Shown: positions 131-63,297 of the stretch, piece by piece
Layout of the letters: each line of letters starts with the position of its first letter
How positions within the stretch are numbered: the stretch's first letter is position 1
NCBI GenBank assembly: GCA_965649765.1
Contig: OZ287756.1
Span: forward strand, 21,452,001 to 21,516,000
DNA: 64,000 bases
Direction of reading: 5' to 3'
Source of the DNA: Bispira polyomma
Lineage: Eukaryota
Position numbers and translations under genes: made by a program
Notes under the pieces: model-generated
Told to the model about the DNA's origin: nothing
What the model saw: the letters and a program-made list of their open reading frames with translations, nothing else
Database searches by the model: none

Positions 131-1478
131 ATGGGAAAGACGAAAACAACTATTCACAGCATAGCTAAGGCGAAGAAACCAGCAACAAGACGAGCCAAAG
201 TACTGGCAGTAACGGAGGACACGGTTCAAAAGGTATCTAATTCTATTGACCACGCTTCGTTCACCAATACCCCTGCCATTGTTTCAACGAGTGTCCGCGT
301 TCTCCAACAGGAGATGAAAGCCAGTACTATGTCATTACCCACACTCGGTGAACCCACGACTTCACAATCGGGCTCTGAGGAGATGCTCTCCATACTAAGA
401 AGATTGAAGTCATCCAATATTTCATTATCTCAACGAATCGAACGAGTGGAAGCTCAGGCAGCCTCGAACGGGCCCTCATTGGTATCCCCACAAGTACACA
501 GTATTGAGGAACAACCACGTCTTCTTAAGTGCTGCTCACATTGCTCCATTACAATCTCAGTCTTCACTTTCTTCATTACACAGGCTGAATGGAGGTCAAA
601 CCTCGCAGTGGACAAGCCAACTCGGACTGGGGGGAACACAAGGCCTACCTACACAAGGTCTGATGCCACCAGTAACACACTCGGGGTTAAGCTCCTTTCT
701 CACTGCGCCGACACAACCACAGGGCATGAACTCACTTGAATACCAAAGGGATGGGATTGTTCCCAGTGTAGATACCTTAAGAGCAATGCCCAGTGTCCAG
801 TCAGCCGTCTCTCGCCAGCTAGCAGAGTATGAAGCACTGGCTCACAGACACCTTTTACAAGGTAAGGTGAATCCTAGAACTAAGTCGGGCCGGTTCAACA
901 GCACGGATGTCACAACTGTGGATGCTCAATTTCGGTGGCCCAATGAGGGATGGGTAGGGGGATCTGCGCAGAAACGCCCGACCTATGATGAATTGACCTT
1001 ACCGCAATGAGCGGCCGGACACATCTTGAACGCGCTTCAGCTTCAAGACAATGTTCTCATGCGCAGTATGATGCACCAACTAGTATTTGCATTGAGAGAT
1101 GCTGCCTTGCTCCCGTGGCCAGTCGTCAGGACAGGCTGGGCCCTCAATATGCAGGAAGTGGAGGAGGGTCGGCTGTCCTGGCAGGAGAATACACAGTGGG
1201 CGTTAAACAGATTAAATGCGTCACAACTCGCGATGGCAAACAACAGCCACCGTCATAACTTTAACACAAGCCAAGGGGTGAGCTCGAATGAGGGGAAGAT
1301 AATAATATGTAAACTATTTAACAATGGAAAGTGTTCTTATAAGTCAGATCATGGCAGTTACAAGCATAACTGCTGGCATTGCAGTAAGATATTAGGGAAG
1401 GAACAGAATCACCCAGAATTTAAATGCTACCGAGCAAATTCCAACAAACAAACTGAGAATGGTAATATTAATAAATAG
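131..1478 (+). pseudogene. Gag-like ORF1 of YR retrotransposon (one frameshift near 500-600, TGG>TGA at 1008-1010)
   Basis: ORFs 83-739, 504-1010 and 1026-1478 join into one protein homologous to 61935-60724(-). C-terminal CKLFNNGKC...HNCWHC...HPEFKC finger array. Confidence 0.8.
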
Positions 1479-1541
1479 GGGGTCATTCGGCCACCAAAAC
1501 CACAGCTAGTAAGTAGTAAGTTAGAAACATGTAAGGACAGA

Positions 1542-4268
1542 ATGAACAATCAGGTAGTTGTTAAGAAAGATGAATTAGCAGAGGCACAGCAGCAACTATG
1601 TGACGTTAAGTATAACACCTCACAAGTAAATGAACATGTAGAACATATAACTGATAAAATTATTGTAAAACCTATAATTCAAGAAAGCTGTATGCGTTAT
1701 AATGTGAATAGTATAGATGTAAAATCATGTAATGTCGTTAATGTTGAAGATGTTTCAGATAAAATTGTCAGACCAGCAGTCGAGAGTATGCATGTACAGC
1801 TTAATCCACCTGACAGGGGCGCTTACAAGGCAGTCAAGGGCTATAAGGTTCAGTATAACAGATCTGATAGCGCTAATGATCTGACATTGGTTAATGGCCA
1901 CACGAACAGCAGCAGAGAAAATGTTAAAGTAAAAGTTGATGTGACAAATTGGAAAATTATACAAAATTGGGGAAATACAGCACTTCCAATAGTGTATATT
2001 TCGAGCAACAAGGCACTCTTCTGTCAAGAATGGGATGCAAATGCTGGTGTTCATTGTTATAGGCCTATTGAATTTGTTCCTGAGGGTTTTCTCCAAATAA
2101 TACACTCATTTGAAGTTATAGTTGCATATAAGGCAGTGGAGAATGATACAAGTAAAGTGAATAGACCACTATCAGTGAAAGATAGGCTACAAGCCAAGAA
2201 TGCACAATTTTTTCATAAAAAAGATGTAATGTGTATGAGAAGATTTAATCTGGACTATACCAGTTACATGCTAGAGATAATTGATAGTCTGATAGAAAAG
2301 TGTAATGATAAAGTATGTGAACTGGACATTAAGGCTATTGACAAAATGACAGAAACGACTTTAATGAGCAGGAAGACGGCAGGGAACTGGACTGAGGAGA
2401 CCACAACAGGTAACACACGTTCGCCTTGTGAATTAGTCACAAATCCGTCTTCTTCTGAACAATTTAAGGAAATTATTATTACTGCAATTATTGAGCCTGG
2501 CAACAGGAATATCATTGACTGTAATGATCCTGGAAAAACCATAGGGTTCATAGCACTTTCACCCGCAAGATTTGCTTTCTGTGGGCCTGATAGACAGGCG
2601 ATACATATTCCATCAATTTCAGAAATTTTCAGAATAGCCAACATTATTAAGAGTACAGGTATGGCTAACTACAGACGGGCCAGAATACCAATCAGTTCTG
2701 GCCTGCATCTGGAAGCCTGGGAAAAATTACTTGAACACTACCCAGATCAACTGCTTTTGCAGTATATCAAATTCGGCTTCCCTCTGTCACTTGAAAACCC
2801 AGAGGGCATTGCTAACAATAAGGTACAAAACCATTTCTCAGCATTACAACATCCACAGGCTGTCATGCAGTACTTAGAAAAAGAAAAATCATTAGGGGCT
2901 ATGTTAGGGCCAGTAGAAGAAATTAAGGACTTACAGTATAATTGCTCAGCATTATTAACCACGCCTAAGGATATTACGAAGCGACGGGTAATACTAAACT
3001 TGTCCCATCCATATGGGGCCTCGTTAAACGACAATGTAACTAGGGACAAATTTGATGGAGTATCTTTCGCGCTAAGATTCCGCAGCATTGACAATATTAC
3101 GCAAGCGATCCGACAAACTGCGAACCCAGTATTATTCAAAATTGACGTTGTGGGCGCGTTTAGGAATTTAAGGGTGGATCCAGTCGATGCTGTAAAACTA
3201 GGAATATTTTGGAATAATAAATACTATCTTGATCCAGCTATTGCATTCGACTAGGTCCACGGCAGCGTGGCGTTTCAGCATTGCACGGACGCAATAACAT
3301 CTTATATAGGAAAGCAGGGCTTTAGAGTGTTTGGCTACATCGACGATTACATATGCGTTGCGTCAGGCAAACGCGCTCAAGCAGGGTTTGAAATATTGCA
3401 TGATTTAATGACTAGGCTCGGCTTACCCATGAATGCTGATAAACTTACCCCACCCACGACGAAACTAACATGCTTGGGCATAGATTTCGACGTTATAGAA
3501 GGTACAATCAGTATCCAACCTGAAAAACTAGCAGAAGTATATAATACTTGTGTAGAGATTTATGATAAAAGTTATATTTCCAAAACAAAATTTCAGTCCC
3601 TACTGGGACAACTTCTTTATATACACAAGTGTGTAGCTCCAGCTCGTATTTTTATTAATAGACTTTTAGCAGCTTTCAGAGGAAATGGGGCTAGTAAAAG
3701 GTTCAAGGTCACTACAGAAATGAAAGCTGACCTTCAGTGGTTTAAAAAATTCCTCCCAAAATTCAATGGCATTATATATATTCAACATACGATTATATCT
3801 TTCGCGAACGAACTACATGTCGATGCATGTCTCACAGGATTTGGGGGCGTTTGGAACGATGAAGTATATGCTACCCCCTTTTATGACATTTTCAATGGTG
3901 AGCTAACGATAGTACACTTGGAAATGCTCAATATTATTATCGCCTTGAGAATTTGGGCCGAAAAATGGAAACGTAAGAAGTTGAGCATTCACTGTGATAA
4001 TATGGCTGTGGTTCTGGTGGTCGATTCACAAAAAACTAAGGATACTTTTCTATCATTATGTTTAAGGAACATTTGGTTAATTACAGCAACTTATGACATA
4101 ACTCTTGAGATAAAACACATTCCTGGTAAAGATAATGTAATTGCTGATGCGTTATCCAGGATCTATTCAATAAAAAATCCTAATGAAGACATTTTACAAT
4201 CAATTAGAGACAATTATATATGGAAACCAGTACCTATCGAATTTTTTAACCTAAATTTATCAATTTAA
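1542..4268 (+). pseudogene. Pol (unknown N-terminal domain + reverse transcriptase + RNase H), premature TAG at 3252-3254
   Basis: FKIDV..AFRNL, AIAFD*VHGS (copy 2 has AIAFGWVHGS), YIDDY, CLGIDFD, HVDAC, IHCDN, ADALSR. The two ORFs are in the same frame. Confidence 0.92.
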
Positions 4269-4274
4269 TTTCAG

Positions 4275-5250
4275 GTGCCACTCCGTTCACTCAACAATTC
4301 ATGGACTCTGCCTGGACCCGTATGAATACAGCCTTAAGACCAAAAACAAATGCAGCATATGGGGGTCAATTTAAGACCTTTTTAGCTTTCCTTCAATTTT
4401 CAGGCATTTCGCACATTACTGTGCATGCCATTATAGCTTTCTTAGAATATCTGGTTCAAAACCAGTTGTCCCCAGGTGCAATTAAAAATTATATGGCTGC
4501 ACTAAGATTCACTGCAAACAAATATCACTGGGACTTATCCCCTTTCATACACAATTCTGTGGCACTTTTCTTGAGAAGTTTATCCCACAACTCCAACTTT
4601 AGGCCAAAACCTAAAGGAATTTTCACTATTCACCAACTATTGCAAATCTCAGTCACTTGTGAGATCTTAGATGATCCTGTCCTCTTTAGAGCAATTTTTC
4701 TTGTAGCCTTTTTTGGTTTCCTGCGGTTATCAAACTTGGCACTTCATGCCAGGTCAGCTTTTGACCCTTCCAGGCATTTCCTTAGGAGGGATGTGGTTTT
4801 TGGTCATCCAGGGGCTCACATCATCATTAAATGGGCAAAAAATTTGCAAAATAGAAGTGACACCCACATATTACAAATTCCACAATTAGAGAACAAGATT
4901 ATTTGCCCAGTTACTGCTTTAAAACACTGCTTCAATCTAGAACATTAAGGGGTGGAGACCCTCTCTTTGCCACCATTAGAAAACCACATGATACAATAGT
5001 GGACTCTCACGTCAGAGCAGCCTTGCAAAAAATTCTGCCACACATTGGATTACAATATAGTACACATGGCTTCCACACCTTTAGAAGGTCGGGAGCCACC
5101 TTTGCCTTCAATCACAACGTATCCCTTCAAAATATTATGTCACATGGCCTTTGGAGATCTTCAGCAGTATGGTCTTACTTACAAAAAACATCCCAGACTG
5201 CTTATGTCGTCCCCCTTATCTTTGCCTCTGCTATCCCTTCCGTTCTTTAG
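4275..5250 (+). pseudogene. Tyrosine recombinase/integrase (frameshift near 4920); probably a spliced exon starting at 4275
   Basis: Catalytic set R (FLRLSN), K (IKWAKN), HTFR, HGLW, Y (VWSY). Acceptor tttcag at 4269-4274. Confidence 0.9.
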
Positions 5251-5482
5251 TTTGGCTTGGGGCATTAAAATTTTACTTATCTTAAAGCAATTTTATGATA
5301 TGTTAATGTCAGTTGTAGAATATATATATATGTATGCTAACATGTAAAAAATAAACACTCAATCGAAATCTTTTATTACCTCTTCACCATCGCAATAAAT
5401 ATATCAGAGCTGGAGATCAAACTTGACCTTTCTCAACTCATGACCTTGTAGCTTAAAATCTTGTTTTCAACATTTGGGGACT

Positions 5483-5592
5483 GTGAATGTATACTCTCTA
5501 CAGATAAATCATTAAATGTACACATTCAACAAAATGGCCATTAAATGTACACAATCAACAGTTGGTGCCATGGAATGTATACATTCAACAGT
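5483..5592. repeat. Short degenerate tandem repeat (core aatgtacacattcaaca, about 4 units)
   Basis: Motif recurs at about 30-33 bp spacing. Confidence 0.6.
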
Positions 5593-6034: not shown

Positions 6035-7697
6035 GCCTGGGCTTCCTTTCAGCACAATCCGACGTCGACCGATTTGTAGGTGTCCGATTCGATCAGACGT
6101 TGGCCGATGTAGCATTCCTTTTATCCCATATCTTCTATGTAAAATAAAATAAAATATTTTTTTGTTTATATTTATTGAAAAATCTGACAGTCTGCCGACA
6201 TCTGACCCGATCTATTGCAAATATAATGAAAGGAAGCACTTGCACCACATATTGGTGGCGGTGTCGGTTTCTTCATCAGATCCTTCTTCAGACCACATAA
6301 AATAGAGTCTCCTGTCTATCAGTCCTTTGAAAACATGGTGGTGTCAATTGGGCTTCATGGCCGCTCACTGTTGCTTGCCTGTGTCTATCGCCCCCCAGGA
6401 TCATGTACCTGTAATTTTTTAGAAGAATTCATGTCTTTTGTTGGTTTCCTGTCATCTATTAACAGTTTGTATCATGTCTGTGGTGACTTTAACATCCATG
6501 TTGATGCACCAGTTAGTGACGGTCATAAATTTATGACCTTTCTTGATTCGTGTGATCTAAAACAGTCAGTTAGACAACTTACCCATCTGCATGGTCACAT
6601 TCTGGATCTATCTCCTAGTAATCAGGATACTATTGTGGATATCAAAGTATGCAATTTTATATCTGATTTTGCATTAGTCAAATGCACAATTGCCTCTCCT
6701 CGGCAGATGGCATATTCCAAATATAGTGCATTATAGGAGGTACCACCGTATAAACATGTCTGACCTCCACACTGATCTCAAGAATACTTCCTTCGTTAAA
6801 TCACCAGCCAATTCTGTAGCCAAACTTTATGAACAATACGCACATGACTTGGGTGATGTACTAGACAAGCATGCACCACTTGTATCTAGAATGTCAAAAA
6901 AAATTCTGTGCATTGGCTTTCCGATTCATACCGACGGGCAAAGTCTCTCAGGCACCAATATGAAAGAACTAGGCGAAGGGCCAAGAATCCACTTAATAGA
7001 AGTCGATTTCGTTGCCAGATTGCTCGGTGCATGTACTTGTTAACGAGGATAAGTTGGAGTATTACAGCAAACTTATCTCAGACAACAGTCACGACACTAG
7101 AAAGCTATGGCAGCTATTCTTAAGAAATTGCATTGGCTCCCTGTTGAACAGCGTTAAGTGTTTAAAAGAGCTACACTTGTTTATAAGTTTCTTCACACTA
7201 GTTTTCCAAAGTATTTTGCCCCATATCTTACAGTATTTCTTATAATACCAGATGCAGTCAGAGTGGTAATAATTTACTTGTAGTTCCAAAGTTCCACCCA
7301 TCTACTCAAAAGTCAGTTAAACAGTTTAGTCACAGCTTTGCTTTTGATGCTCCCATTGCTTGGAATGCTCTTCCTGCTGTGATTTGTGCGCTCCCCTCAC
7401 TAAGAAGCCACCTTAAAACCCACTTGTACACCAAGGCATACCCACCTTAGTCCCAATCATCCCCCGGTGTGCTCTGTGGTCCTCGACCCTTTTCTGTCCC
7501 TGGATATTGAAATTGGATTACTGTCTTTTGTGCTGTTGTACCTTGGAGTCCCCTTCGTTAAGGGGAGATTAAGCACTATAAAAGTCTAATTACAATTACA
7601 ATTGGTAGTATTGTGTAAGGAGCCAAAAAAATCAGCTGATGTTGGCCGATGTCGGCCGACGTCGGCCGACAAAAACATGCTAAAAGGAATCCCAGGC
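6035..7697. mobile_element. PIF/Harbinger-like MITE interrupted by an L2-like LINE
   Basis: TIRs GCCTGGGCTTCCTTTCAGCA / TGCTAAAAGGAATCCCAGGC, TAA target duplication at 6032-6034 and 7698-7700, subterminal gtcggccgac repeats. Confidence 0.75.
6257..7600 (+). mobile_element. L2/CR1-type LINE remnant (AP endonuclease, RT deleted, 3' end)
   Basis: GGGVGF, CVYRPPG, CGDFNIH, HGHILDL motifs; ends HLYTKAYPP*; (AATTAC)n tail; attggt at both 6251-6256 and 7601-7606. Confidence 0.85.
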
Positions 7698-8632
7698 TAA
7701 AAGAATGACCTTGCTTGTGATACAAGGCCTAGAAATATAAACTTACGCAATGGCTATTTACTTTAACACAGGCCTGATAAAAGTTACCACTTAAAACAAA
7801 AAACTACTACATGGGCGTCATGATCGACAATGCTGGATATATATAAGAAGAAGGGTGTTATATACACCAGGGTTTGAACCCCTTTAAGCTGATAAAAGGA
7901 GGGGAGATTTGGAATTTTTAACTTTTGGCCAAAGCAGTCAACTGTGTCAACCCAGTCAATGCGTCAAAACTACTGCACATTATTGTCAATATAATATTAA
8001 AATGTTTTTTTTTATTCAATTTAAGCATTAATGTCAGGGCGAAAGAATAGCCTAACATGATTATTCACTGTTGATACAAGTTAGCAATTGAGTCACAAGC
8101 AATAAATCGTTGTTGTTTTTTCGCCCAGCATATTTTTCGTATATTTTATAAAATTACAAATCTAAGGAATGCATTAGGAGTATAAGGAGCCCCTTAACCT
8201 TAATATTAGCAACAATATCTCAAGAGGGAGGATAAACAAATTTTAAGCAAAACACAACATTCAAGAAAGCTATCAAAATGAGTTATCTGCAACTTGAAAG
8301 CATAGGTTTGTGGAAAACCTACTCCACCCAGTACAAACACAAAATATATTAGCACCGAAATCACTGGCACTCGATGATCTCATTTCAAGAACCCATAACA
8401 CGCTCAGGTGGCGGGGCCCAACACATGCACGAGGAGGTCAACAAAAGCACCCGAGGATACAGATAACTCAAGACAATGCAATCCAGGATCCACGGTGTAC
8501 TGTCACACCAACCAATGTGTCTGTCCTCAACTGTGTCTACAACTACATTGAATAAGAGCTAAGTACTGTATGGAATACTCCCCCTGTGGGTTTGGGGAAG
8601 AAGAATAGGCGTAACCAATCCTCCAGCGTGTC

Positions 8633-9697
8633 ATGGCCAAAATGTATGCTGCACAAAAGGGAAAGTCCAGTGATAGAATAATAACTTTATTCTTTGGGAT
8701 TTTTAGTACTTTCCATGCATCTGGATATGTCATTGGAGATGTGGTGTCAAACACAGTGCTCCGTAATGCTCCACCAGAGAACTACACAGCACCGAGCCAG
8801 GATGTTATTGAAGACAACTGTGGAATGAATGACTGTCCATGGAATGTGGTCAACATCACTACACTGGATGAACCTTCAACTAGTGTGGTCTGGAGTCTGG
8901 TGGCTGTCTATGACATTTTTACGGTGTTATCTATACTTGTCAGCATTTTCCTACTTGATCCACTCCCAAAATACCTGCAAAAGAAACAAAAACCTGTCAA
9001 AGAAGATATTGGAACATTACTGTTATCTGTGGTAAGGCTCTTGAAATCACACAAAATGCTGCTCCTAATGCTATTCAATACTCATTCTGCCCTCTACACA
9101 GCTTTTAAAAATGCAGATTTCAACCGTTCCTGGGTAACCTGTTCCTTAGGTATCTGGATAGTGGGCCTAGTGAGTATACCACATAGTGTAATAGGTGCAA
9201 TCTCAGCATTTGGTACAGGTTTCATTTCCAAAGTGATAGGGCGTGTAATACCAATGGTCATATCCACAATCTTTGGCATTGTTTCCTTTGCATGGCTGGC
9301 CATCTGGACAATTAACAGTGAGGATACCTGGACATTTTTCACAGTAATCTCTGCTATGGCTTTACATGATGGGATCCTGGAACCAATCCTACAATCTATG
9401 CATGGAATAATGTTTCCAGATAATATTGAGGGTGCTTATGGTTGTTACAACTTTTTTTGGTGTTTGGCTGCAGCTATTACATATGCTTATAACTATTTTG
9501 TATGTACTGACATCAAGCTCTATATCCTCTTCATTAGCCTTACTTTAGGATCATTCAGCTTTGCCATTCTTGAGTGGGAATTAAAGAGAAACAAAGATAA
9601 ACAAGTGAATGCTGATTTGGATGTTAAGGTTATACATGAGGATCAAATGGGTGCAAATAATGAGGGGTGCACAGAGGAGAGATATACTAAGTTTTAA
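8633..9697 (+). CDS. UNC93-like multi-pass membrane protein (MFS-fold), lacking about 140 N-terminal aa in this window
   Basis: CGMNDCP lumenal loop, ADFNRSWVTCSLG and YAYNYFVCT motifs; collinear with the paralogue at 13449-14940(-). In-frame stops lie just upstream of 8633. Confidence 0.8.
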   Translation: MAKMYAAQKGKSSDRIITLFFGIFSTFHASGYVIGDVVSNTVLRNAPPENYTAPSQDVIEDNCGMNDCPWNVVNITTLDEPSTSVVWSLVAVYDIFTVLSILVSIFLLDPLPKYLQKKQKPVKEDIGTLLLSVVRLLKSHKMLLLMLFNTHSALYTAFKNADFNRSWVTCSLGIWIVGLVSIPHSVIGAISAFGTGFISKVIGRVIPMVISTIFGIVSFAWLAIWTINSEDTWTFFTVISAMALHDGILEPILQSMHGIMFPDNIEGAYGCYNFFWCLAAAITYAYNYFVCTDIKLYILFISLTLGSFSFAILEWELKRNKDKQVNADLDVKVIHEDQMGANNEGCTEERYTKF

Positions 9698-13448: not shown

Positions 13449-14940
13449 TCAATATTTTGTGTATTTACTTTCCTGAATATCATTTCCCTCATTGTCAATC
13501 CCTAATACAGCCATGTCCATACTGTCATTATCTATTTTATTCTCCAAGTTAGAGTTATCCTTTTGGTCATTCTTGGTAATATCCCATTCAAGCAGAAAAT
13601 AGCCCATGTAGCCCACTGTAATCGTACCATGCTGTATGTAGACTTTGATGTCGGTGCAGACAAAGTAGTTATAACCATATAATACTGTGGCTATAAGACA
13701 CCAGAAGAAATTATAACACCCACAAGAACCTTGTTCATTGCCTGGGTAGGCTATGCCATGTAGAGCTGTCATAATCGGCTCAAAGATACCACTGTGCAAT
13801 GCCATGCCAGATATCAACAGAAAGTACACCCAAGTGTCATATTTATTCACTGGCCATAAAGCAATACTTGTCATTGTCACTATGGCTATGGTTAAGGAGA
13901 ATGCCATCAGCGGGGCTCTTCCGGTATACCTTGCCAGCAAGCCTGTTGTGAAACCTAATACTGAGCATATGATACCACAGACCATGAAGAGCAGTCCTAC
14001 CATCCAGATACCTAAGCCACATGTTATCCAAGATCTGCTAAAGTCTGCATAGAGGAACACTGAATATGAAGAGGAGTACACATTCATCATGATCAGGAAC
14101 CAAATCCTTTGTGTCTTTACCAGTTTGATGACAGATAGGAGCAGTCCACATAGTTCTTGTAAAATTGGACCACTCTCCTGTTGAAGGTACTTTGGTATTG
14201 GATCAAGAAAAAGTAAACCAATAACAATAGACATGACACTGAATACTGCATACACGGCTAACAATGTCCAAACTACTTTTTCTGGTGGATCTTCAAAAGC
14301 AGTGATGTTAATCTCAACCCATGGGCAGTCATTCATCCCGCAATATTTCTCTATGTCTTCATCTGATGGCTCAGTGTGGTTCTCCGAAGAGACTGTGCTA
14401 TGGACTGTGTTTAATATAATGTCTCCAAATACATACCCTGACATAAGGAAGGTAGAAAATAACCCAAAGAATAAGGTAGCTACTTTGTCTACCAATTGAT
14501 TGGTTTACTTTGCATATTCTTTTGCCATTTCCATGGTATATGAACAATGTGCAATCCAGACTGGTGCTCCAAAAAGATCAACTAAGATGGAAGATGGAAT
14601 CATTAGTGCCCAGATACCAATTCCAATAGCTGCCAGCCACAGTAAGGAGGGTGTCAATGATATAATGATAGTCCATTTATAGCCACAAATCCAGATCATC
14701 AGTGGGGCAAAGAACAAAACTAGGCAGGGCAAATGTACCATAAATAACGCTTGTGCTAATTGTACCAACCCCATCCTCAGCATGTAGACTGGATTGAAGA
14801 GTAAGTATCCCATTATAGCCTATATTTGTTAGAAAAAAAAGTGTATCTAGCACTAAAATGTTTTTGATTATGTTTCCCTTTGTAATCTCGTGATTTAAGT
14901 TTTCACCTTGTGGTGAGAAAGAATTTTCTTTAAAACCCAT
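13449..14940 (-). pseudogene. UNC93-like gene, intronless CDS, with a +1 frameshift (about 14717-14720) and TAA at 14505-14507
   Basis: KNILVL...LQSSLHAEDGVG N-terminal UNC93 motif. Three ORFs join into a protein of about 495 aa. Acceptor tatacag|G directly precedes the ATG. Confidence 0.85.
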
Positions 14941-16945: not shown

Positions 16946-19900
16946 CTATGTGGTGACTATATCCCAATTTATATCTTGTAAAATTTGTTTCACTTCGTGG
17001 TCAGTTCCCTCAAATGATCCAGTAAGTATAACATTATATATTTCGAATTTTCTCTTGATAATATGTCTAAATTCTAGAAAAGCTATATCTTTTTTATTTG
17101 TCCTGCAGTGATTTATGTACCACTTACCATAAACTATGACAAAATTTACTATGACATTATCTGGTATTACTTTCCCTGTCAATCCAATGCCAAACAACAC
17201 TTCACAAATCGACAGTTTAATCCTAAGTTTTAAATTTAAGGCCTCTGTTAACAAACTTTCAACCAGCTCCCAAAATTGTTTGCTGTATGCACACAAGTAA
17301 ATATGATGCTCTAATGTGTCGATACAGGCACAAAAATTACAAAACGGGTTTTCTCTAATATTCCATTTATACAGATTATAGTTACAGTTTAAGGTTCTAT
17401 TAACGATCTTATACTGGAATGTTTGTAAATAGGTTTCCTTTATAGTATAATGTATTGCATTAAAAATACATTTCCAGGGAGCGACTTCTAAAGAAGGGAA
17501 TAAATCTATCCATGTGTCAATAGAAGTAGGTTCTTTTAATTTTCTACTAACTACTTTCCAGTATAGGGCTTTATTGCTCACTTTGCTAAAGCTCATCATT
17601 TTCCCTTTTATCCTTATACAAATATTGTGATACTGCTGCATACCCAGAGTAATTGTCTTTAACCTTTGTTTCCATGATTTTGGTATAGCGCTACACAAAA
17701 TATTATAATTGTATAAACTAATATTCCAGTTGAGTTGACTTTTTAGGTTTTGAAATTTTAGAAGATGTCCCTTATCATCTACAATATCTTTTATTGTTAT
17801 ATTCTTTGTATTGCTCTTTAATAATTTAAAAAGCTTCTTTTCTAGGGGTTTGCTGTCTGAACATATGAATTTGTTGTCAAAAATGTATTCATTAAATATT
17901 TCCTCCAATGTCTCTGGAGGTCTGCTGTTAATTACATGCCAGCATTCCAATACCTGTTTGTGAAAAACATTGCGGCCTTTATCACAGTAAGACAATGGTA
18001 ATTTATGTTTAATTAAATCTCTATCAATATTTAACTTATACCATGTTAATGACGCCCATTTGGGCATTTGAGTATCATTTGAAATTAATCTTTTAATCCA
18101 TTTTATTTTAGCACAAATATGAATACTAAAGATATCAGGCATTCGCAGCCCTCCTGAGCTGAAGTTAGATAAAATAGTTTCTTTCTTTATCTTAGCAGGT
18201 TTTTTGTCCCATAAAAAATTGAATAACATTTTATCTATTTTCTCTAGTAAATTACTTGGACAGTAGCACATTGACAAGATGTCACTAATCTGAGGTATTA
18301 CCAGAGTTTTTATAATCATCACCTTCAGATCTTTTCCATAGATTTCAATCTACTGTCAAAATTTAGTCTGGTCATTTCCACTTGGTCAAAGGAGAACCAT
18401 ACTCCTAATGTTTTAAAAGCTTCATGACTGGCATGAATCTTGCCAAGTTCTTTTGGGAGTTTTAACGGTTTTAATTTACATTTCCCTATAGGTACTACTG
18501 TTGTTTTTTCTAAATTTATTTTTAGACCAGAACATTTTTAAAAATTGTTCAATGATGAAACTGATTCTACTAGTGAAGTAATATTACTTAGAAATAAAGT
18601 TGTATCATCTGCCAGTTGGCATATTTTGTATTCCTCTTTACCCACGTTAATTCCACTGATTGCCTTATTATTTCGAATGTATATAGCCAAAATCTCTGCT
18701 ACTAAAAGGAAAAGTAGTGCTGAGATAGGACACCCTTGTCGTATTCCCCTAGTGATATTGAAATATTGTGAGAAGTAGCCATTATTGCAAACACAAGACT
18801 GGATATTCTTGTAAAGTATATTTGTCCACTTTAAGCATTTAGAAAGGAAAGACCATTCTACACTATCAAATGCTTTTTAAAAATCAACAAGTACTAAATA
18901 GCCCGGTAAGTTGCTTGTATCAGTGTAAGATATGATATCTTCTATAATTCTAACATTTTGTCCAATGTATCTATCTTTCAGATATCCAACTTGATCATTA
19001 TTAATCAATTTGGGCAGAACTTTTTGAAGTCTGTTAGATAGTGCCTTTGTTAATATTTTGTAATCTGTATTCAAAATACTAACAGGCCTCCAGTTACGTA
19101 GGTACCTTAAATCTTTACCTTCTTTTGGAATAAGTTTGAGAATACCTCTTCTTTGATCATCTGTCAGTGTGCCACTTTCAAGAGAGTAATTGAAGCTATT
19201 AAACAATATATCTTTAATATCAGGCCAAAAAAACTTACATAAATTAGTTGTGAACCCATCATTGCCAGGTGTTTTGTCATTAGATAATTGCTTTAATGCT
19301 GTTGAAATTTCTTCCATCATTAATACTTCATCACAAAATTGTTTCTCTAAATTATCCAATTTTGGGATATTTTGGTCAGTAAGAATGATTTTTTCAGTAT
19401 CATCTGTCTCCCTAATCTTTGACGAATAAAGATTTCGTAAAAAAGCTTCTGTTCCATCAAAATAACATCTGGCTCTGTAATTTCATCGCCATTAGATTTT
19501 ATTAGTTTCTTTATATATTTAATGTTATAATTTCTTTTTTCTAAATTGATGAAATATTTTGTATTCTTTTCCACCTCTTCTACCCACTGAGCTTTTGATC
19601 TGAGAATAATACTGTCTGTCTTTATTTTTTCTAATTTTTCCCACCTTGATTTGGTTTCATAATATTCATTCAATTTATCTGGGTTTTTATTTATCTCTTT
19701 TTCTAATGTTTCTAATTTTCCTAAAATTTCCTTTTCATTCTCCCTTGTTTGCCTTGACTTTTGTTTTGCAAATATAATTGTTTTCGTTCGTAATTGGCAT
19801 TTCACAAAGTCGCATAAAATATTTTTATTTTCCATTACTACATCTGTTTTAATAGCCTCAACCTCTCTCTTGATCATGTCAATGTAATCCTTTTCTTGGA

Positions 19901-20722
19901 GTAATTTATTATTAAATTTCCAATAACTAGGACCTCTCTGATGTGTATCTAATATTTGGATTTTCAGTTTAATCACGCTATGATCAGATCTATTACCTGG
20001 TTTTATAGTACATTCTATGACCTGATACGTAACATATTCTGATATCAACCAGAAGTCTTATCTAGACTGTATAAGTCCACCTCTTGACCTTTCTCGTCTT
20101 GTAAATTGTAACTCATTTGGGTGTCAAAATCTCCATATGTCCACTAAGTTTAATTCCTCCATTAAACTTTGTAACTGTTTTGTATATCGAGAAGTCACAC
20201 AACTCACCCCTCCCTTTTTGTCTAAAACACAGTTAATTTGAGTGTTAAAGTCCCCCCCTAATATTAGGTTGCCTGAACTATAACCTTGTAATAATTCTCT
20301 TATATTTGACAAAAATTTGATTTGGAGATCTATGTGGTCCTTTGTTGAGGCATAAATATTTATCAGTACCATGGATATATCTTCAATTTTACAGTTAATA
20401 AGAAGCATTCTACCTTTATCATCTTTAACTACTGTAATTATTTTAAAACTGAATCTTAAATTCTCAGGAATTAATATGGCCACCCCTCTACTCCGAGATG
20501 TTCCATTGGAAAAAAAATTTCCCCTTTCCATTCTTTCCCCCAATTTATCTCCTCTGCAGCTGTGCAGTGTGTTTCTTGTAGAAAAGTAATACCAGCATGT
20601 ACCTTTTTCAACCACTGAAATATATTTTGACGTTTTTTAAATTCTCTCAGTCCCCTACAGTTGAAGGAATTGACCACTAATTCATCAGTTTTAATTGGTA
20701 TTTTGTATTCTTGATCTTGCAT
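16946..20722 (-). mobile_element. L1/Tx1-clade LINE ORF2 (endonuclease + RT + C-terminal Cys region), degraded
   Basis: FNCRGL, FLQETH, GGDFN, SDHS, KTPGNDG, NWRPVS, ADDTT, GGLRMPD, CNFC..IDTLEH motifs across frameshifted ORFs. Confidence 0.92.
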
Positions 20723-33902: not shown

Positions 33903-34391
33903 TCATTGTTGGAAAGACCAAACATCTGGCCTGGGGAATAAGGTAAACAGAGGAATGATAACTCCACAGAGATACATCAGGAAAAAGATCCGGTCACAGA
34001 CACGGCTGATGTTCTTCCACTCCAAAGCAACCTCCTTGGATTCACGGGTTTCTTCCTTTTTCTTGTTGGCCATCTCATTTATTCGAATGAGTAACTGTTT
34101 TACCTCATTGATGCTGCAATGCAAGGACTTGAGGGTGCAGTTATTAATATTTACAAAAGCCTCGGTTTTACAGTCACATGACCCACATCCGTCCATTTCA
34201 TTGGATGTCGGGGTGTGATGATCTTCACCTGTGGTTGGACTCTGGTTCAATAAAGATGAAGATTCCTCTTTGTGGTTAGATGTGCATGTGACTCCCGGTT
34301 TTCCTTTGCTTCTGGTTTGCTTATGCACTGATGAGCAGTACATGTTGTCCTCAAAAATGCATAACAGCTTTGCAAGGATACGAAGGAATAT
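33903..34391 (-). CDS. Cys-loop (nAChR-like) subunit, last exon: intracellular loop, MA helix, M4
   Basis: EWKNISRVCDRIFF...; acceptor aaacag|ATA, phase 0. Confidence 0.9.
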   Translation of the reverse strand: MFLRILAKLLCIFEDNMYCSSVHKQTRSKGKPGVTCTSNHKEESSSLLNQSPTTGEDHHTPTSNEMDGCGSCDCKTEAFVNINNCTLKSLHCSINEVKQLLIRINEMANKKKEETRESKEVALEWKNISRVCDRIFFLMYLCGVIIPLFTLFPRPDVWSFQQ

Positions 34392-34813
34392 CTGTTTGCA
34401 CAAAGAAAATATTGATTCAGCACATACTTTGGTGTGACCAAGGGTGCACTGTTATTCAAGTTATAATTATTCTAAACATGTCTAAGCTAATTATATATAC
34501 ATATTTCAAGAATTTTTAAGTATTTTATTTGATAAAAGTACATTTATGTGATTGTACTTTCAACTGCATTTGGCATTTAAAATACATCAATATATTTTTG
34601 GGATGAATTGACTTAATGATAGCCTGATGACATATAAGTGTTATAGTTATTCTCACAAAAGTTTACAATATAGAATATCTATGTCTAGGAATCCCAATTT
34701 AAATGCAATTCCAAGTCCACTGCATTCCAAGCACTTTACATATAGTAAAAAATGATGTATTCAATATGTGTTAGTTTGACGTTTAAATGACTTAAATGTT
34801 TACCATCTCTTAC

Positions 34814-48655: not shown

Positions 48656-48679
48656 ATAAAAGTTTGCGGGATGGAGAGA

Positions 48680-55349: not shown

Positions 55350-56950
55350 TAAATGGTGTCTGGAAAGAGGAAGTATATGCCCTCCTTACTTTAACATTTA
55401 CAATCAAGCGTTGACAATTGTTCAGCTTGAGATGTTAAACATTATTCTCGTATTGCATGTCTGGGCGCCCAAATGGGCGCGTCAGCGTACTCTTTCACTG
55501 CGATAACTGGTCGTAGTTCTGGTTATGAACACTCAGAAAACTAGGGACACCTTTTTAGCCTTATGTCTAAGGACTATTTAGCTTCTTGCTGCCACTCGAG
55601 ACATAACTATATAAATTCAAAATATTCCAGGCAAACATAATATCATTGCATATGCTCTTTCCAGAATATATTTTGCTAAGCCAGCAAATGCTGAATTATT
55701 ACAAAACTTGTACAATCAGTATCGCTGGAACAAAGTCTCCATACAATATTTCAACCTGAAATTATCTATGCAATTTCAGACATAACCAGATCCACAAAAC
55801 CACTCATTCAATCTGTCTGCAACAGAATTTACACAGCTCTAAGACAACCTCGAAGACAACCACAGCATACAATAACTAATTCAAGACTTTCTTGGCTTTT
55901 CTGAATGTGGGAGGCCTACAACAAATTAATGTTGCTTCAGTTCTAGCTTTCCTGGAATTATTGGTACAAAATAACCTATCACCTTCAGTGTTTGGTAACT
56001 ATCTCTCCTCTTTTAAGTTCATGGCTTACAAATTACAGTGGGACATGGCTCCCTTCACTCATAATTGTTTTGCTTTGTTGACCAGGATTATAACCATTAA
56101 CCCTTTTCCGTCCTAAACCAAAAGGTTTATTTGATGTAACTCAGTTTACACAAATTTCACAGGCTTGTCAGATCTTACAGGATCCAGTATTATATAAAAG
56201 AATGTCCCTCTTCACATTTTTCAATTTTCTAAGGCTTCCAAACACAGCCTCTCATTCTGGAGCTTCTTTTGACCGTTCTGGGCATTTTCTTAGGAAGGGT
56301 ATAGTTTTTGTCCCACTAGGAGCTCATGTCATCTTAAAATGGGCAAAGAATTAGCAGAATAGAACTTGAACACACATTATACAAATTCTTTTGCCTCAAA
56401 ACCATCTTCTCTGCCCTGATAGGGCACTACTATAACTTATCTTTTCCAGGCCACTGGTCACACACTCACCACTGTTTGCAGCCAATGTATCTCAATTTCA
56501 ACCAATTGTCCAATCTCACATGAAGTTGGCTTTACAAAATTTGTTAGAACAGATAGGTATTCAATGTCAATCACACAGCTTTCATACTTTCAGAAGGTCA
56601 GGTGCTACATTCGCCTTCAAAAGAAACGTATCTTTGCAGAATTGTATCTCCAACAAACATCTCAGGCTGCTTCAATGGTACCTCTCACTTTTGCAACGGC
56701 TATCCCCTCTTCTTAGTTAGCCTTGGGGCTTAAAGTTTTATCATATATAATGTTAGCTTCTCTTATTTTATCTTTAAGCATCTTGAACTTCACCACTACT
56801 GGACTGTACATAGCAAGTCCCCACAGGGGATTGCTAGTTTAGTCCACACCACACATTATATCTAGCCTATAACTATAGCTAATACCTTAAAACCTTACCT
56901 AGTAAATGCTATGGCCTAATCCTTTCCTCTGTCCATCCACCTGGGGAGGG
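55350..56950 (+). mobile_element. YR retrotransposon copy 3, 5'-truncated (RNase H tail, YR, 3' region), heavily degraded
   Basis: GVWKEEVY, LEMLNII, HCDN, ALSRIY; YR HSFHTFRRSGATF; stop at 56714-56716. Confidence 0.88.
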
Positions 56951-57004: not shown

Positions 57005-60000
57005 GCCCCAAGCCAAACCTAGGAGGAGTGCGAGATGGCAGAGGCAAAGGTTAAAGGTACCACTGAGGCAGCTTGTGAAGTATTTTGTAAGTATGTCTAC
57101 ACAGCAGATGACCTCCACAGTCCGTGGGCCATAATGTTCTGGAGTGAGACGTTTTGGTTGAATACAAAAGTGGCTCCCGACCTTCTAAAGGCATGGAATC
57201 CGTGTGAGCTATGTTGAATGCCAATGTGTTGTAGAATTTTTTTTTTTGTAGAGCAGATCTTGCATGTGAATCAATAATTGTGTGATATGGTGGAATTTTT
57301 GATGCAAACAGTGGTGCCTTGTCCGAAATTTGTCTGGATGAAAGCAGTTTCTTGAGAGCTAAGACTGGGAAGATGTGAGAATTGTCCAATAATGGAATCT
57401 GAATTATATGAGTGTCAGTTCGATTTTGTAAATTTTTGGCCCATTTTAAGATCATATGAGCTCCTGGGTGACCAAAAATGACATTCTCTCCCAGGAAATG
57501 CCTGGTGTTGTCAAAGGCTGATTTTGAATGAGGTGCTATATTTGATAACCTCAAAAACCCAAAGAAGGTTACTAAAAAGATAGCCCTAAAGAGTAAAGGG
57601 TCATCCAGGATTTCACAAGCTCTAGATATGAGAATAAGCTGTTCTATGGTAAAAATGCCTTTGGGTTTCGGTCTGAAAGCCGAATTATGTGTAAGACTCC
57701 TAGTGAATAGTGAGACTGCATTGGGTGTAAAGGGAGTAAGATTCCAATTTAACTTAGATGCTACAAGTTTCAGAGCTGCTAGGTAGTTGTTAATTGCTCC
57801 TGGTGATAACTGGTTCTGCACCAGGTACTCCAAAAAAGCAATAACTGAGTGTACATTAATGGTAGCAATTCCTGTGAACTTAAGAAAAGCTAAGAATGTC
57901 TTAAATTGTGCATTGTATGCTGTAGTTGTCTTTGGTCTTAAAGCTAGGTCAATTCTGGCATTGGCTGAAGCCATCAGAGCTTGGCTGATGCATGTAGAGC
58001 CTAAAATTATATAGATACGTCCAAATTGAAGTATTCAATTGGTACTTGGTGCCATTTAAAATTACTGTCAATTTTATTTATAAGCTCTTGATCTGATGCC
58101 TTGTCTGAATACAATCTAGATAATGCATCTGCAACTACATTTTTCTTACCAGGTATATGTCTAATTTTAAGAGTAATGTCATAAGTAGCTGTTAGTAACC
58201 AGATGTTTCTTAAGCATAAGGCCAGGAAACAATCTCTGGTTTTTTGTGATTCGACAACCAGAACCACAGCCATATTGTCACAGTTGATCATTAGACTACT
58301 ATATCTCCACTTCTCAGCCCATACATGTAAAGCAATAATTATATTTAACATCTCCAGATGTACGATTGTCAATTTTCCGTCAAAAATGTCGTGAAACGGA
58401 GTGGCATAAACCTCGATTCCAAACGCCCCCAAAGCCTGTGATTCAAGCGTCTAAGTGCAGCTCGTCTGCATATGGTATGGCATCATGGTTAATAAAGTTT
58501 ATACCGTTGTAATGTTCTTAGAACGTTTTAAACCATAGCAGGTCATTTTTTATTTCACTAGTTACTTTAAACCGTTTATTTGCATGTCCAGCTCGAAATT
58601 CAGCCAATAGTCTGTTGACAAAGGTTCGGGCTGGGGTAACACATTTATGAATATATAGGAGCTTGCCTAATAATGATTGGAATTTGTTCTTAGATATATA
58701 CTGTTTGTGTAGGACCTCAATGCAAACGTCATATACTTCTTTTAACTTGTCTGTTTGTATACTTATAATTCCTTTAGTAATATTAAAGTCGATTCCCAGA
58801 CAAGTAAGCTTGTGCATTGGTGGAGTTAATTTATCTTGGTTCATTGGGAGGCCTAGCTCCTGTAGCAAAGTATGGAGCTTGTCAAAGCCTTCCATAGCTC
58901 TATCCTTCTGAGTAACGCAGACGTAATCATCTATGTATCCAAATACCTTAAAGCCCTGTTTCCACATATGAGCAGTGATTGTGTCCGTACACCGCTGAAA
59001 AGCCGCGCTTCCATGAACCCACCCGAATGCAATTGCAGGGTCCACATAGTACTCATTTTTCCAAGAAATTCCTAGCTTTATTGCGTCCACACGGTCAACC
59101 CTGGCCACGTCAATTTTGAACAAGGTGGCGTTTTCTGTATCCCGTATGGCTTGTGTGATGTCATCAATTGTCGGAAATTTTAATAGAAAAGACATGCCAT
59201 CGAATTCGTCCCTGTCGACGTTGTCATTAAGCGAGTTGCCATATGGATGGGACATGTTACAAAATTATTGCGTTTATTAATATCTTTGGGTCTAGTGAGA
59301 AGTGGCGAGCAATTGTAGTCTGAAGTTTTTACTTCCTTAACTGGACCTAACATGGCCCCTAGATCAGTTTCTTTTCTAAGATATTCCCCAACCTCATAGG
59401 GATACTGTAGAGCTGAGTAATGATTCTTTACCTTAACATTTTCTAATTCAGTAGGAGTCCTTAAACATAGAGGGAAACCAAATGTGATATATTGGAGTAA
59501 TAGCTTGTCAGGATAATCCTGAAGCATGTGCTGCCAAGCTTGTGTGTTCAGTCCAGAACTTAATGGTATTCTAGCTGATCTATAGTTTGGAACTCCTGTT
59601 TGTTTTATAATTTGAGCAGTTGTAATCATGTCTTCTACTGTTTTTATATGTATTGGCTGTTTATCTGGTCCTTGAAATTCAAAGTCAGTATCTGATAGTG
59701 CAATGAACCCTACAGTCTTATCTTTGTCATTAATGTCAGTGACCACCCTGTTGGTTGGTTCACTAGCCTTAACCATATAAGTCATTTGGGAGAAGAATTC
59801 CGAACACGCAGGGTGAGCATATTTTTCATCACAATAACTTACTATGGTTTTAGTAGTGTCAGAGCTACTATGTCCATTCTGTACAGCCTCGCCTGTTGGC
59901 TTTACATTTACATCAGTATTGACTATATTTACATCTTCACAATGTTCAATTAACTTGTCAATTACATTTTCTACAAACTGAGTATATGTTTTACCATTTG

Positions 60001-61935
60001 AATGTAGATACTTCATATCTCTTTGGTAAAAATAAAAATTATTACTGGCTTGCTTCTGTTGCTTAGCTGAAATATATTCAATGCCATCCATATTTACAAT
60101 TGGTATCTTGTGGTTTTTACTAATCAATGTTTCAAAGACATTAATAATATACAACATACTGTTAGGTTTAAAGTCCAGGAGAGTGTAGCATTGCCATCCA
60201 GTGACCTTATCAGTATAAGTATAATAAAAACCTTTTGCCAAATAATGAGGTTCTTCCATGTGAATGATTGGAAAATTTTTGCCTATAGCCATATCAGGTA
60301 AAGACCAATTGGTCACACTAATTTTTACTCTGATGGCCTCCCCATCAGTGTGGTCATTCTGTATGTGGCCTGTATGACTTTTGTCAGTGAAATTTTTATA
60401 TATCCCACGGCAGTTGAGGCTACACTCCCCACAGTCCAACTTGACCTTCTCTTGCACCCTGGTAGGTGGAAACATTTGCTGCTGACTCTGGAGAGACTCA
60501 ACATCACCATAAGTGTTCTCTGAAATGTTCTCATATATCACATTTGATAACAAATTGTTATTACAATTTAACCTTTTTTCATTAGTTCTCACAAACAAGT
60601 TATTTTTAAAACTTTCTTTTTTATACAATTAATGTTGTTTTTACTTGAAAAAATGTCATTAACTCTTAAATCTACAGTATTGACCAATGTTCCTTTTTGC
60701 TTAACTGGTTGTCGAATGTCTCCCTAGCTGCTTTTTACATTTTGACTGACAGATTGCTTACTTGAGTTTGCCTTAAAACATTCAAATTCAGGGTGACCAG
60801 ATTCTTTTCCTAAAACTTTGGCACAGTACCAGCATTGATGCTTATAATTTCCATGATCATTTTTGTCACTGCATTTACCATTGTTAAATAGCTTACATAT
60901 TGTTTTCTGTTCTGTGTCATTGGACGTACCCTGGTGATGGCTATTAACCATGGCTAACTGAGACACGCTCATTCGATTCAGCGCCCATTGCGTGTGATCT
61001 TGCCCCGTCAAGCGTCCCTCCTCAACTTCATGCATGTTTGACGCCCATGCCGTCCTCACCACGGGTCAAGGTAGCGACGAAGCGTCTTGAAGCGCGAATA
61101 CTATCTGGGTCATCATGTTCCTCATGGCTGTGTTGTCTGCAACAAGGAGTGCGTTCGAGATTTGTCCTGCCGCCCATTGTGGTAGCGACAGGTCATCATA
61201 GGCGGGCCGTTTACAAGAAGAAGTGGTGACATTCGTTGCTAAGCAGCCCTCGTTGGGCCAACGGTATCTTGGATCAACTGTGGCAACATCAGTCGAATTA
61301 AACCTGCCAGACTTAAGCCTCTAGTTCTGCTTACCTTGGGACAGTTCCCTCTGCGACTGACTCATAACTGACTCATAACTGGCTAAATGACGTGTAACTG
61401 CTGACTGCACGTCAGGCACGGAGCAAAGGGCCTCTAGGTTGGGCACAATACCATCTCGGTTGTATTCGTGGTGAGTGGGCCCCAGTAGTGGTTGTTGTGA
61501 GATTCCGGTTTCCAAAGGCGGAGTGTAACGTGGGAGAGGTAGGCTGTTGGCCGTGAAACTGCCCCGTCTGAAAGTTGTAGCACTGCTCATGAACTGATTA
61601 GAATTACTGGCCGAGTCGGTGACTGTAGCCCTTCTCGCTTCAACTTTCTCAAGCCTAGATTCTAATCTTTTCAGTATTTCTAACATCTCGTTAGGTGGAT
61701 TTACTGGTGGCTGTGAAATAATAGGTGGCTGTATCATTTGGGGATCTGCCTGGAACAGAGCAGCACTCGATGTCGAAGTTAATGGTTCATCAACCTCAGC
61801 GAGGTGGCTACGAAGAGCCCTAACAATATTATCAGTTACCTGTGAACCGTCTGTTCCACTTGTGGCTTTCAACACCTTGGTTTTACGGTTGGCTGCTTTC
61901 TTTGCCTGCAGAGGGGTTTTACTCATCTTACCCAT
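57005..61935 (-). mobile_element. YR retrotransposon copy 2 (gag 61935-60724, pol about 60723-58007, YR 58000-57019), inactivated
   Basis: Same gene order and motifs as copy 1; stops at 61321, 61066 and 57097, plus several frameshifts. Confidence 0.92.
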
Positions 61936-63088
61936 GGTTATAAACACACAAATCCAATAACACCTTCCTTATAATATGGTAAAAGATAAAATGTAATGTT
62001 TAAAATAATTCACTAACAACAAATCTTGTAAAAATCTCCATGTAAGTTAAAATAATTTTCACTTGTTCGAAATCAAATTCAATATGGCAGTATAATGCCA
62101 AGAAAAACCGGGAAATTTTAATTAATTCTGCAATGTGATTGGCCCTAGAATAGCTATGGTAAAATGAGGATAGCTATACCTAATTTTTAATTAAGGTGGT
62201 GTGTTATATTTAACGTGGACTGAGATAGCAGTCTCCTAAAGTAGACGTGCTTAGCACATTAGAAGTTTCAAAACCACCACCTCCCCTTTAACCACAACTA
62301 GTAGTGCACTTTCCATGAATGGGAGGATTTTTCTATAAAGTCTTCAGGGATATTTACATTACCAATTTTAACTGTTCATGCATTGTCACACTGGGCTGAC
62401 CGCTTACGCCGCCGGCCGTGTGGAGGGATTCTGTCTACTTATTCCCTTCCCTGGGCATAAAATTGGGGGACCATGGTGGAATAGGGGCCCTGAGAGGAAG
62501 GATTTACCTCTGCTAGGTGGTTGGTGTCCAAGGCCGGGGGTTTCAGCGGTGGTCAAGGTTTCACCATGCTGGAACATTAAAGGTTTCAACTCGGAATGTA
62601 AGGAATATTTGTGTAGCGAGTGTCACTTGAGGGCGCTTTATATTCATAAACTGATAATTGTCCACTTAAGATTGAAGTATTGAGTTGTAACATAGGGGCA
62701 ACCATTTACATATAGATCATTATGTGTTGTTTATGGCTAGTCCTTGCCAGTGAATATCAAAAGGGACAGCAACGTTGATTTAATGCTACATTCATGTGGC
62801 TTGTGCAGTCTGACAAATAGTAGCCTGGATAAGGCACAAATGATTCTGTTGGTCTTCATGCTGTAACAAAGGGTTCCTTTATAATTGGTCCCTTTACATA
62901 TGCCTTTTTACCTGTATCTTTTATTTGATTTTACATGTTTAAATTAGTGGATATTGCACTTCTGTTGTTGTATCACTTAATGACAGGGTGATTATTTATA
63001 ACATATTAACATACAGGCAAGGTGTATATGGGTAGACAGACACACTGGTGATAAAGCTATTATGATAAACAAAACATCAAATGAGCCA

Positions 63089-63297
63089 CAGTCCACCAGA
63101 GGTGAAGTTCAAGATACTTAAAGGTAAGTTGAGGTAAGTTTCAAGGTAAGGTAAAGGTAAGTTGTTGGAAGGTAATACAAGTTTAATTACAGACAGTAAC
63201 ATATTCCTTTTGAGGTTTTATTTTACAGGTTAATATTTATGTACAGGTTGATAATAATAGAAGTTAAAATTGAATATGATAACATTTCAAGCCCCAT
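63089..63297 (-). repeat. Non-coding YR-element terminal repeat (homologous to the post-YR region of copy 3)
   Basis: tggggcttgaaatgttatcatattcaattttaacttctattattatc and ctttaagtatcttgaacttcacc..ggactgt match 56724-56807. Confidence 0.7.

Follow-up and report, generated by a model that had tools for sequence, protein, structure and literature searches.

Conserved splice signals and a covarying long-range complementarity suggest that Ngaro-like retrotransposons of Bispira polyomma make their recombinase as a spliced Gag fusion and Pol by readthrough

The stretch of Bispira polyomma DNA analysed here (64,000 nucleotides of contig OZ287756.1, positions 21,452,001 to 21,516,000 of the forward strand; hereafter the window) contains three copies of a retrotransposon encoding a tyrosine recombinase (YR). 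Based on the features of their repeats, gene order and domains, these copies are Ngaro-like YR retrotransposons of the order DIRS, and all three are decayed. An earlier note, made from the window alone, had spoken of YR retrotransposons, which stands and can now be refined to Ngaro-like. Here we report that a splice donor inside gag and a splice acceptor past the pol stop are conserved across 21 families of these elements, and that a conserved amber codon at the end of gag, followed by sequence complementary to RNase H codons 2.5 kb away, suggests readthrough as the route to Pol. The features of the three copies, in window positions, are as follows (RT, reverse transcriptase).

131..861, plus strand: copy 1, 5' part of gag, predicted exon 1 coding region, with a frameshift near 516-526
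859..867, plus strand: copy 1, predicted donor of phase 1 within the codons for Q-G-K, 862 being the first base of the intron
862..4274, plus strand: copy 1, predicted 3413-nt intron with the 3' part of gag (Cys/His-rich end) and all of pol
1476..1478, plus strand: copy 1, gag amber stop TAG, in the pol frame
1479..4268, plus strand: copy 1, pol, consisting of a variable linker, a conserved domain without Pfam match, RT and RNase H
1485..1497, plus strand: copy 1, predicted 5' arm of the duplex, +7 to +19 past the amber stop
4014..4026, plus strand: copy 1, predicted 3' arm of the duplex, at the RNase H codons L-V-V-x-S
4266..4275, plus strand: copy 1, pol stop TAA and predicted acceptor TTTCAG/G, phase 1
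4275..5250, plus strand: copy 1, tyrosine recombinase, predicted exon 2, with a frameshift near 4864-4948
5257..5485, plus strand: copy 1, B1 (split direct repeat), identified from its similarity to L032, an intact sister copy
55355..56777, plus strand: copy 3, a 3' fragment with the end of RNase H, the predicted acceptor at 55779/55780 and a broken YR
57031..58000, minus strand: copy 2, YR exon, with a frameshift near 57243
58000..58009, minus strand: copy 2, pol stop and predicted acceptor at 58001/58000
58249..58261, minus strand: copy 2, predicted 3' arm of the duplex, in RNase H
60705..60726, minus strand: copy 2, gag TAG (60726-60724) and predicted 5' arm of the duplex (60717-60705)
61329..61337, minus strand: copy 2, predicted donor, intron from 61334
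62044..62258, minus strand: copy 2, A1 repeat, by similarity to copy L050

In copy 1, the predicted donor reads CAAG/GTAAGG at 861/862 (the slash marks the border between exon and intron), where base 861 is position 1 of a codon in the gag frame. The pol stop TAA (4266-4268) is followed by TTTCAG/G with the border at 4274/4275, base 4275 being position 2 of a codon in the YR frame, and the YR ATG lies at 4301, 26 nt past the acceptor. Copy 2, on the minus strand, has CAAG/GTAAGC at 61335/61334 and TAA-TTTTAG/G at 58001/58000 with the same phases, and copy 3 retains CAA-TTTCAG/ at 55779, in phase with the YR frame, with ATT at the position of the Met codon. Donors, acceptors, spacing and phases were re-read as the earlier note had given them; the intron, put there at 3.3-3.4 kb, was computed as 3413 nt in copy 1 and 3334 nt in copy 2. 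In addition to its two frameshifts, copy 1 has internal stops at 1008-1010 and 3252-3254, the latter in pol, and therefore cannot make the full fusion itself. Copies 2 and 3 are likewise broken, and the window copies retain only parts of the split repeats; for the A1 and A2 repeats of copy 1, there was no match.

The host genome (1.04 Gb) was searched with the YR, which gave at least 150 matches, and with a diverged YR, which gave 124 matches among those listed. We took 60 loci (40 from the first search, 18 from the search with the diverged YR and 2 from a search with gag), which were picked to span identity bands, mostly with long open YR frames. Together with window copies 1 and 2, these loci make up 62 copies that fall into 21 families at a cut of 80%, with identities of 58-79% between families. 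Copy 3 is outside these counts, as a frameshift mis-registered its anchor. Intact copies have a gag of ~410-540 aa, an in-frame stop, a pol of ~910-990 aa and then a YR frame that is in -1 and slightly overlaps pol.

In all 62 copies, the predicted acceptor reads TTNYAG/G in phase 1, the motif being the six bases past the position of the pol stop. Positions -6, -5, -2, -1 and +1 are invariant in all copies and position -3 is always a pyrimidine (C in 54 copies, T in 8), with a pol stop codon that is TAA in 56 copies, TGA in 5 and mutated in 1. In the YR frame, the A of the AG falls on a third codon position, and the residue encoded there varies among six (S 38, V 7, T 7, P 7, A 2, L 1). Since this invariant A lies beyond the pol stop and at a third position under six residues, neither protein explains the acceptor. 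No other conserved phase-1 acceptor was seen in the linker of the 21 family representatives. The sole metagenome match, contig L091 with 45% YR identity, carries TTTGCAG/G in the same register and phase and has no ATG before ~codon 28; the viral contigs searched gave no match. At the protein level, and thus indirectly, 21 of the 120 YR homologs listed from ENA span the acceptor site and 19 of these 21 read [IML]I[SVP][GD]; 36 of the 120 begin only at residue 40.

The donor could be called in 57 of the 62 copies, the other five being without an alignable gag or donor region. G/GTAAG is present in 55 of the 57, the remaining two having single substitutions, and, measured against the gag frame upstream, the donor is in phase 1 in 51/55 copies assessed, the remaining four being frameshifted. 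Of the columns with a conserved residue, 24 for Gly and 20 for Lys, those at the donor are the only ones with uniform codons, with GGT in 19/19 real Gly codons (one further count, from the decayed copy L086, is a chance alignment) and AAG in 20/20; the next-best columns reach 15/20 for Gly and 18/21 for Lys. The residues immediately past the donor differ in both identity and number. G/GTRAG stands at the donor site in 19 of the 21 family representatives, compared to at most 3/21 elsewhere over 4050 column-by-phase positions. Indirect evidence comes again from proteins: QGK or a variant with one residue changed precedes the SGR motif in 20 of the 22 gag homologs listed. Across the 21 families, the nucleotides of donor and acceptor and their phase are conserved more strictly than the proteins demand, and it was on their conservation that the earlier note had made its proposal depend. 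The conserved GT donor, the AG acceptor and the matching phase would be those of a spliceosomal GT-AG intron.

The protein predicted from this splice consists of 187-331 aa of Gag and 324-326 aa of YR, and exon 1 was stop-free and 3n+1 long in 8/8 copies checked. For copy L037 (G000:C1:15348515-15357015), the predicted junction joins positions 2558 and 6023 of the locus. The SAM-like N-domain of the YR starts at ~residue 16, and the first in-frame ATG of the YR frame is found at codon 26-79 in 11 of the 21 families. With the first ATG past the start of this domain, many young families cannot make the full YR from their own AUG, in agreement with the earlier suggestion that the YR does not need a start of its own; an ATG conserved throughout was not found. 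Judged from sequence, splicing from the donor to the acceptor very probably takes place, and the conserved signals and their phase support the spliced mRNA for a Gag(N)-YR fusion put forward in the earlier note. We infer the pairing of this donor with this acceptor solely from their matching phase.

The route to pol appears to be a different one. The gag stop is TAG in 52/52 copies where it could be located (of 57 with anchors), in frame with pol, and the base after it is G in 50 of the 52. The first 80 codons past the TAG are free of stops in the pol frame in 18/21 families, compared to 0/21 in each other frame; the pol linker is barely alignable across families. In 17 of the 21 families, the 40 nt past the gag stop find their best partner 2.46-2.83 kb further downstream, at the codons for A-V-V-L-V-V in RNase H; control windows from the linker converged on a common site in at most 4/21. 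In a fixed register from +8 to +19, 10.6 of 12 positions pair in cognate combinations compared to 9.0 in combinations of non-cognate families and 1.6-6.3 when the register is shifted. The cognate pair sum was reached in 0 of 20000 permutations, in a test that ignores phylogeny, which counts against it. Position +14 pairs in 21/21 families using five pair types (T:A 8, A:T 8, C:G 2, G:T 2, T:G 1), and compensatory pairs are also found at +17 (C:G 16, T:A 4) and +19 (G:C 17, A:T 2). The complementarity between the post-stop sequence and the RNase H codons covaries, which suggests readthrough. The conserved in-frame TAG of gag and the covarying duplex with RNase H codons are new in this analysis; the expression plan of the earlier note is retained with regard to the spliced YR and refined with regard to pol, which is likely reached by readthrough of the amber codon rather than by splicing. 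By analogy with amber readthrough in murine leukemia virus (MLV) and long-range readthrough in tombusviruses, we infer a stimulator of readthrough, and it is probable that the duplex forms and acts as such. It may also have a role in splicing or packaging and, as both arms lie inside the intron, it may set the splice ratio.

Taken together, we consider it likely that these elements express Gag by termination, Gag-Pol by readthrough and Gag(N)-YR by splicing. The unspliced RNA, which would also be the genome, would yield Gag by normal termination and Gag-Pol by occasional readthrough of the conserved amber codon. A fraction of the RNA would be spliced once, from the donor in gag to the acceptor past the pol stop, losing the Cys/His-rich end of Gag, pol and both arms of the duplex, and would yield Gag(N)-YR. 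This fusion would co-assemble into particles via its Gag part, although we consider it an evenly balanced matter whether the 187-331 aa of Gag do carry the 325-aa YR into the particle. We lean, with some reserve, towards a three-way recoding of one RNA in animal Ngaro retrotransposons, in which the integrase is made only as spliced Gag(N)-YR and Pol by amber readthrough driven by the 2.5-kb duplex.

A number of observations weigh against this expression programme. The families are related, so that the counts are not independent, and the copies were chosen from among the matches listed, mostly for the long open YR frames mentioned above. The polypyrimidine tract of the acceptor is short and pol-coded. 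TTNYAG is also found at an F-Q codon pair of RT in 18/21 families, where it can be driven by the protein; the motif alone is no proof, and it is the non-coding position and the phase that carry weight. An ATG is present at codon 9 of the YR frame in 10/21 families, and an upstream in-frame ATG in 3/21. No Gag-YR fusion protein was present among 269 YR homologs or among the longer proteins searched, in records that resemble plain calls of open reading frames (ORFs) on DNA, so that this negative carries little weight. Intron-less genomic copies were absent among 40 scored matches each for families A and B, in a search that was weak. In the L058 family, 40/40 scored matches were full-length, so that half-matches could not show. 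In three runs of unstated kind with the L037 element, no donor-to-acceptor joint was among the 15 of 17 joints listed; these runs cover the whole element evenly, have loose ends at the repeats and look like DNA, and are thus uninformative on expression. Three long open frames were considered and rejected as candidate fusions. The one in L071 is an expanded gag with a frame of 675 aa. The pol-YR frames in L073 (4696-6963) and L074 (4834-6642, minus-oriented) are due to a small indel at the end of pol that sister copies do not have, and likely represent decay.

The alternative with a place in the literature is frameshifting. PMC13003380, in the part consulted, quotes Poulter and Butler (2015) to the effect that the YR of Ngaro elements is probably produced by programmed frameshifting in a small -1 overlap. 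In our elements, -1 frameshifting of this kind by the ribosome, where pol and YR briefly overlap, would yield Gag-Pol-YR. The YR is indeed in -1 and its open frame overlaps the end of pol, reaching back 4-29 codons from the Gly at the acceptor (8 codons in 14/21 families). Moreover, and to the disadvantage of splicing, a heptamer of the type X XXY YYZ occurs in 24/62 copies, which represent 9/21 families, including 6 of the 7 copies in the family of window copy 1, where copy 1 itself has a slippery-type heptamer at 4253-4259 that the earlier note had missed. However, the heptamers come from L-N-L/F codons, and none is found in any copy of 12/21 families, including the young, high-copy L058 and L066 families. 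In the L066 family (22 copies among the matches listed, with YR identities of 97-100%), the overlap amounts to only about two pol codons and contains no slippery site. Frameshifting accounts neither for the invariant non-coding YAG past the pol stop nor for the donor in gag; we regard it as quite unlikely to be the main route to the YR, but it could act as a minor second one. That the motifs are mere by-products of protein conservation or of chance in AT-rich sequence is scarcely credible. QGK can be encoded by GGTAAG, and F-Q codons yield TTNYAG elsewhere, but such uniform codons are seen at the donor site alone, and the acceptor is not part of pol and coincides with residues of the YR frame that vary. 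This explanation is largely refuted.

Another possibility is that both sites are real but not joined to each other, the acceptor being fed by another upstream exon or from an internal promoter, or that the YR is translated from its own AUG or a non-AUG codon. The pairing by phase and the ATG at codon 9, both mentioned above, leave room for this. Against it, the 4050 positions contain no second conserved donor and the linker has no further conserved acceptor of phase 1, the two sites are both in phase 1, and the early ATG is missing in 11/21 families. We consider this very unlikely. Finally, the donor in gag could also be spliced to a second acceptor that gives access to pol, a YAG 19 nt past the gag stop. 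A phase-1 YAG is present at +17 to +19 in most families, and several families have a TTNYAG ~800 nt before the GFIA motif. However, +19 is not G in 3/21 families, and in two of these it is an A opposite a TTG codon, so that the pair is kept and the AG is lost. The tract upstream of the YAG is A-rich, the sites at -800 are not in one column and are missing from several intact families, and the pol frame is already open right behind the gag stop. We rejected this acceptor and regard a second splice as unlikely. A donor at the gag stop was also rejected, GT following the TAG in only some families. The preferred reading is a single splice for the YR combined with readthrough for pol.

The assignment of the elements to Ngaro is based on the following features. 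The genes for gag, RT/RNase H and tyrosine recombinase are co-oriented in that order. RVT_1, RVT_3 and Phage_int_SAM_1 were found by Pfam, with Phage_integrase below the cut-off, and the YR of most family representatives has the motifs R.SN, H..R and HG.W...Y. Gag has no Pfam match and owes its label to its position and its Cys/His-rich end. Pol ends ~35 aa past the RNase H-like match, and three intact pol proteins gave no Dam methyltransferase match at E up to 1. Split direct repeats of the order A1...B1 A2...B2 are present, with both pairs found in e.g. L032, L037, L052, L058, L061, L062, L065/66 and L070 and with B2 following A2 after a spacer of ~0.7-0.9 kb. The repeats of a pair are 88-100% identical; as this is often 99-100%, the insertions are recent. 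A DIRS1-like element could be ruled out due to the direct orientation of the split repeats, the lack of a methyltransferase and the lack of long terminal inverted repeats in six loci. A PAT-like element would fit the split direct repeats, but the methyltransferase is absent from pol. The layout matches the Ngaro descriptions in the parts consulted of PMC3783388, PMC3266345, PMC6681497, PMC9210276 and PMC8547959; in particular, the order A1-gag-pol-YR-B1-A2-B2, an RT/RNase H without methyltransferase and a YR slightly overlapping the end of pol in -1 are shared (PMC3783388, PMC3266345, PMC8547959). In contrast to these, gag and pol share one frame behind an amber stop in our elements. Ngaro of Xenopus has, in the sources consulted, a fourth ORF for a hydrolase, whereas no conserved fourth ORF past the YR was seen in 13 tails of 1.5 kb.

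Further observations concern the elements and their surroundings. Pol contains, upstream of RT, a block of ~130 aa (window ~1930-2300, plus strand; V.VTNW...P[IV]..GFY...DYT) that can be aligned over 13 copies and has no Pfam match. Family B has tandem repeats of 93 nt (31 codons), located in L037 at 1950-2257 (N-terminal part of gag) and 3400-3585 (pol linker). At G000:C3:15669729-15880210, eight gag matches score equally and seven of them are ~29.4 kb apart, forming a tandem segmental array that carries the element. At G000:C10:32419455-32497491, four copies belong to family B and form two pairs 15.1 kb apart; one pair is inverted relative to the other. In the window, remnants around copies 2 and 3 (63169-63305, 62414-62541 and 56791-56846) resemble, at a similarity of ~75-86%, the regions of the B repeat, the spacer and the A repeat in the L058 family, which suggests nested or solo terminal repeats. 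The window also has two inverted paralogous hydrophobic ORFs, at 8615-9697 (plus strand, 360 aa) and 13449-14504 (minus strand, 351 aa), with 73-78% DNA similarity in places, which by eye resemble exons of a multi-pass membrane transporter. The segments at 16946-20636 (minus strand), 23233-24673, 6230-6736 and 48496-48960 (all plus strand) are, presumably and again by eye, endonuclease/reverse transcriptase fragments of long interspersed nuclear elements. The ORF at 33903-34451 (minus strand) ends in a hydrophobic segment that is, in our view, reminiscent of the final helix in a subunit of Cys-loop receptors.

Several known systems resemble parts of the proposed programme. Copia makes Gag from a spliced subgenomic RNA that drops pol and thereby sets its protein ratios, whereas in our elements the spliced RNA would make the integrating enzyme. 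The stimulator of readthrough in MLV is a local pseudoknot, whereas the duplex predicted here spans 2.5 kb. Readthrough dependent on a long-range duplex is a device in the manner of plant viruses that is not known from retrotransposons. The remaining comparisons are based on parts of the papers cited. The closest precedent is the SD' RNA of MLV, in which a donor inside gag leads to P50, a protein with the N-terminus of Gag fused in frame to integrase sequence and packaged in virions (PMC10496198). P50 shares with our prediction the spliced in-frame fusion of the Gag N-terminus to an integrase; it differs in being accessory and in containing no more than the C-terminal 116 aa of a DDE integrase, whereas the splice predicted here would be needed for the entire YR of 325 aa. 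MLV also produces Gag-Pol by amber readthrough (PMC12789967). Foamy viruses likewise make an essential enzyme from a spliced subgenomic mRNA, that for pol (PMC12789967), but their Pol is not fused to Gag and the product is Pro/Pol rather than integrase alone. In tombusviruses, readthrough needs pairing of the post-stop RNA with a partner ~3.5 kb away (PMC3234231); this partner is in a 3' replication element, whereas the predicted one here is in RNase H codons of the ORF that is read through. With regard to Ngaro itself, the -1 frameshift view of the review (quoted in PMC13003380) stands against the conserved splice signals to Gag(N)-YR described here. Neither a splicing nor a readthrough model for elements of Ngaro or DIRS was found in the parts consulted of the literature searched, which includes PMC7192593, PMC9341512, PMC4157794, PMC5633606, PMC3783388, PMC3266345, PMC9210276, PMC6681497 and PMC8547959 and leaves some primary papers outside its scope. 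Within these bounds, the arrangement is undescribed for DIRS-order elements, as the earlier note had presumed.

The expression of the enzymes of YR retrotransposons has so far been guessed rather than shown, with frameshifting as the view of the review. The present analysis gives the exact positions of the predicted junctions and describes a covarying RNA complementarity, in a clade that is high in copy number, was recently active and has relatives in other assemblies. If the reading is true, the integrase of these elements is mis-annotated, with a wrong start and ~190-330 Gag residues missing, which would matter for any reconstitution or study of the enzyme. It would overturn the assumed -1 frameshift and would add long-range control of readthrough to the retrotransposons. 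It would also explain how an element without a protease gets its recombinase into particles.

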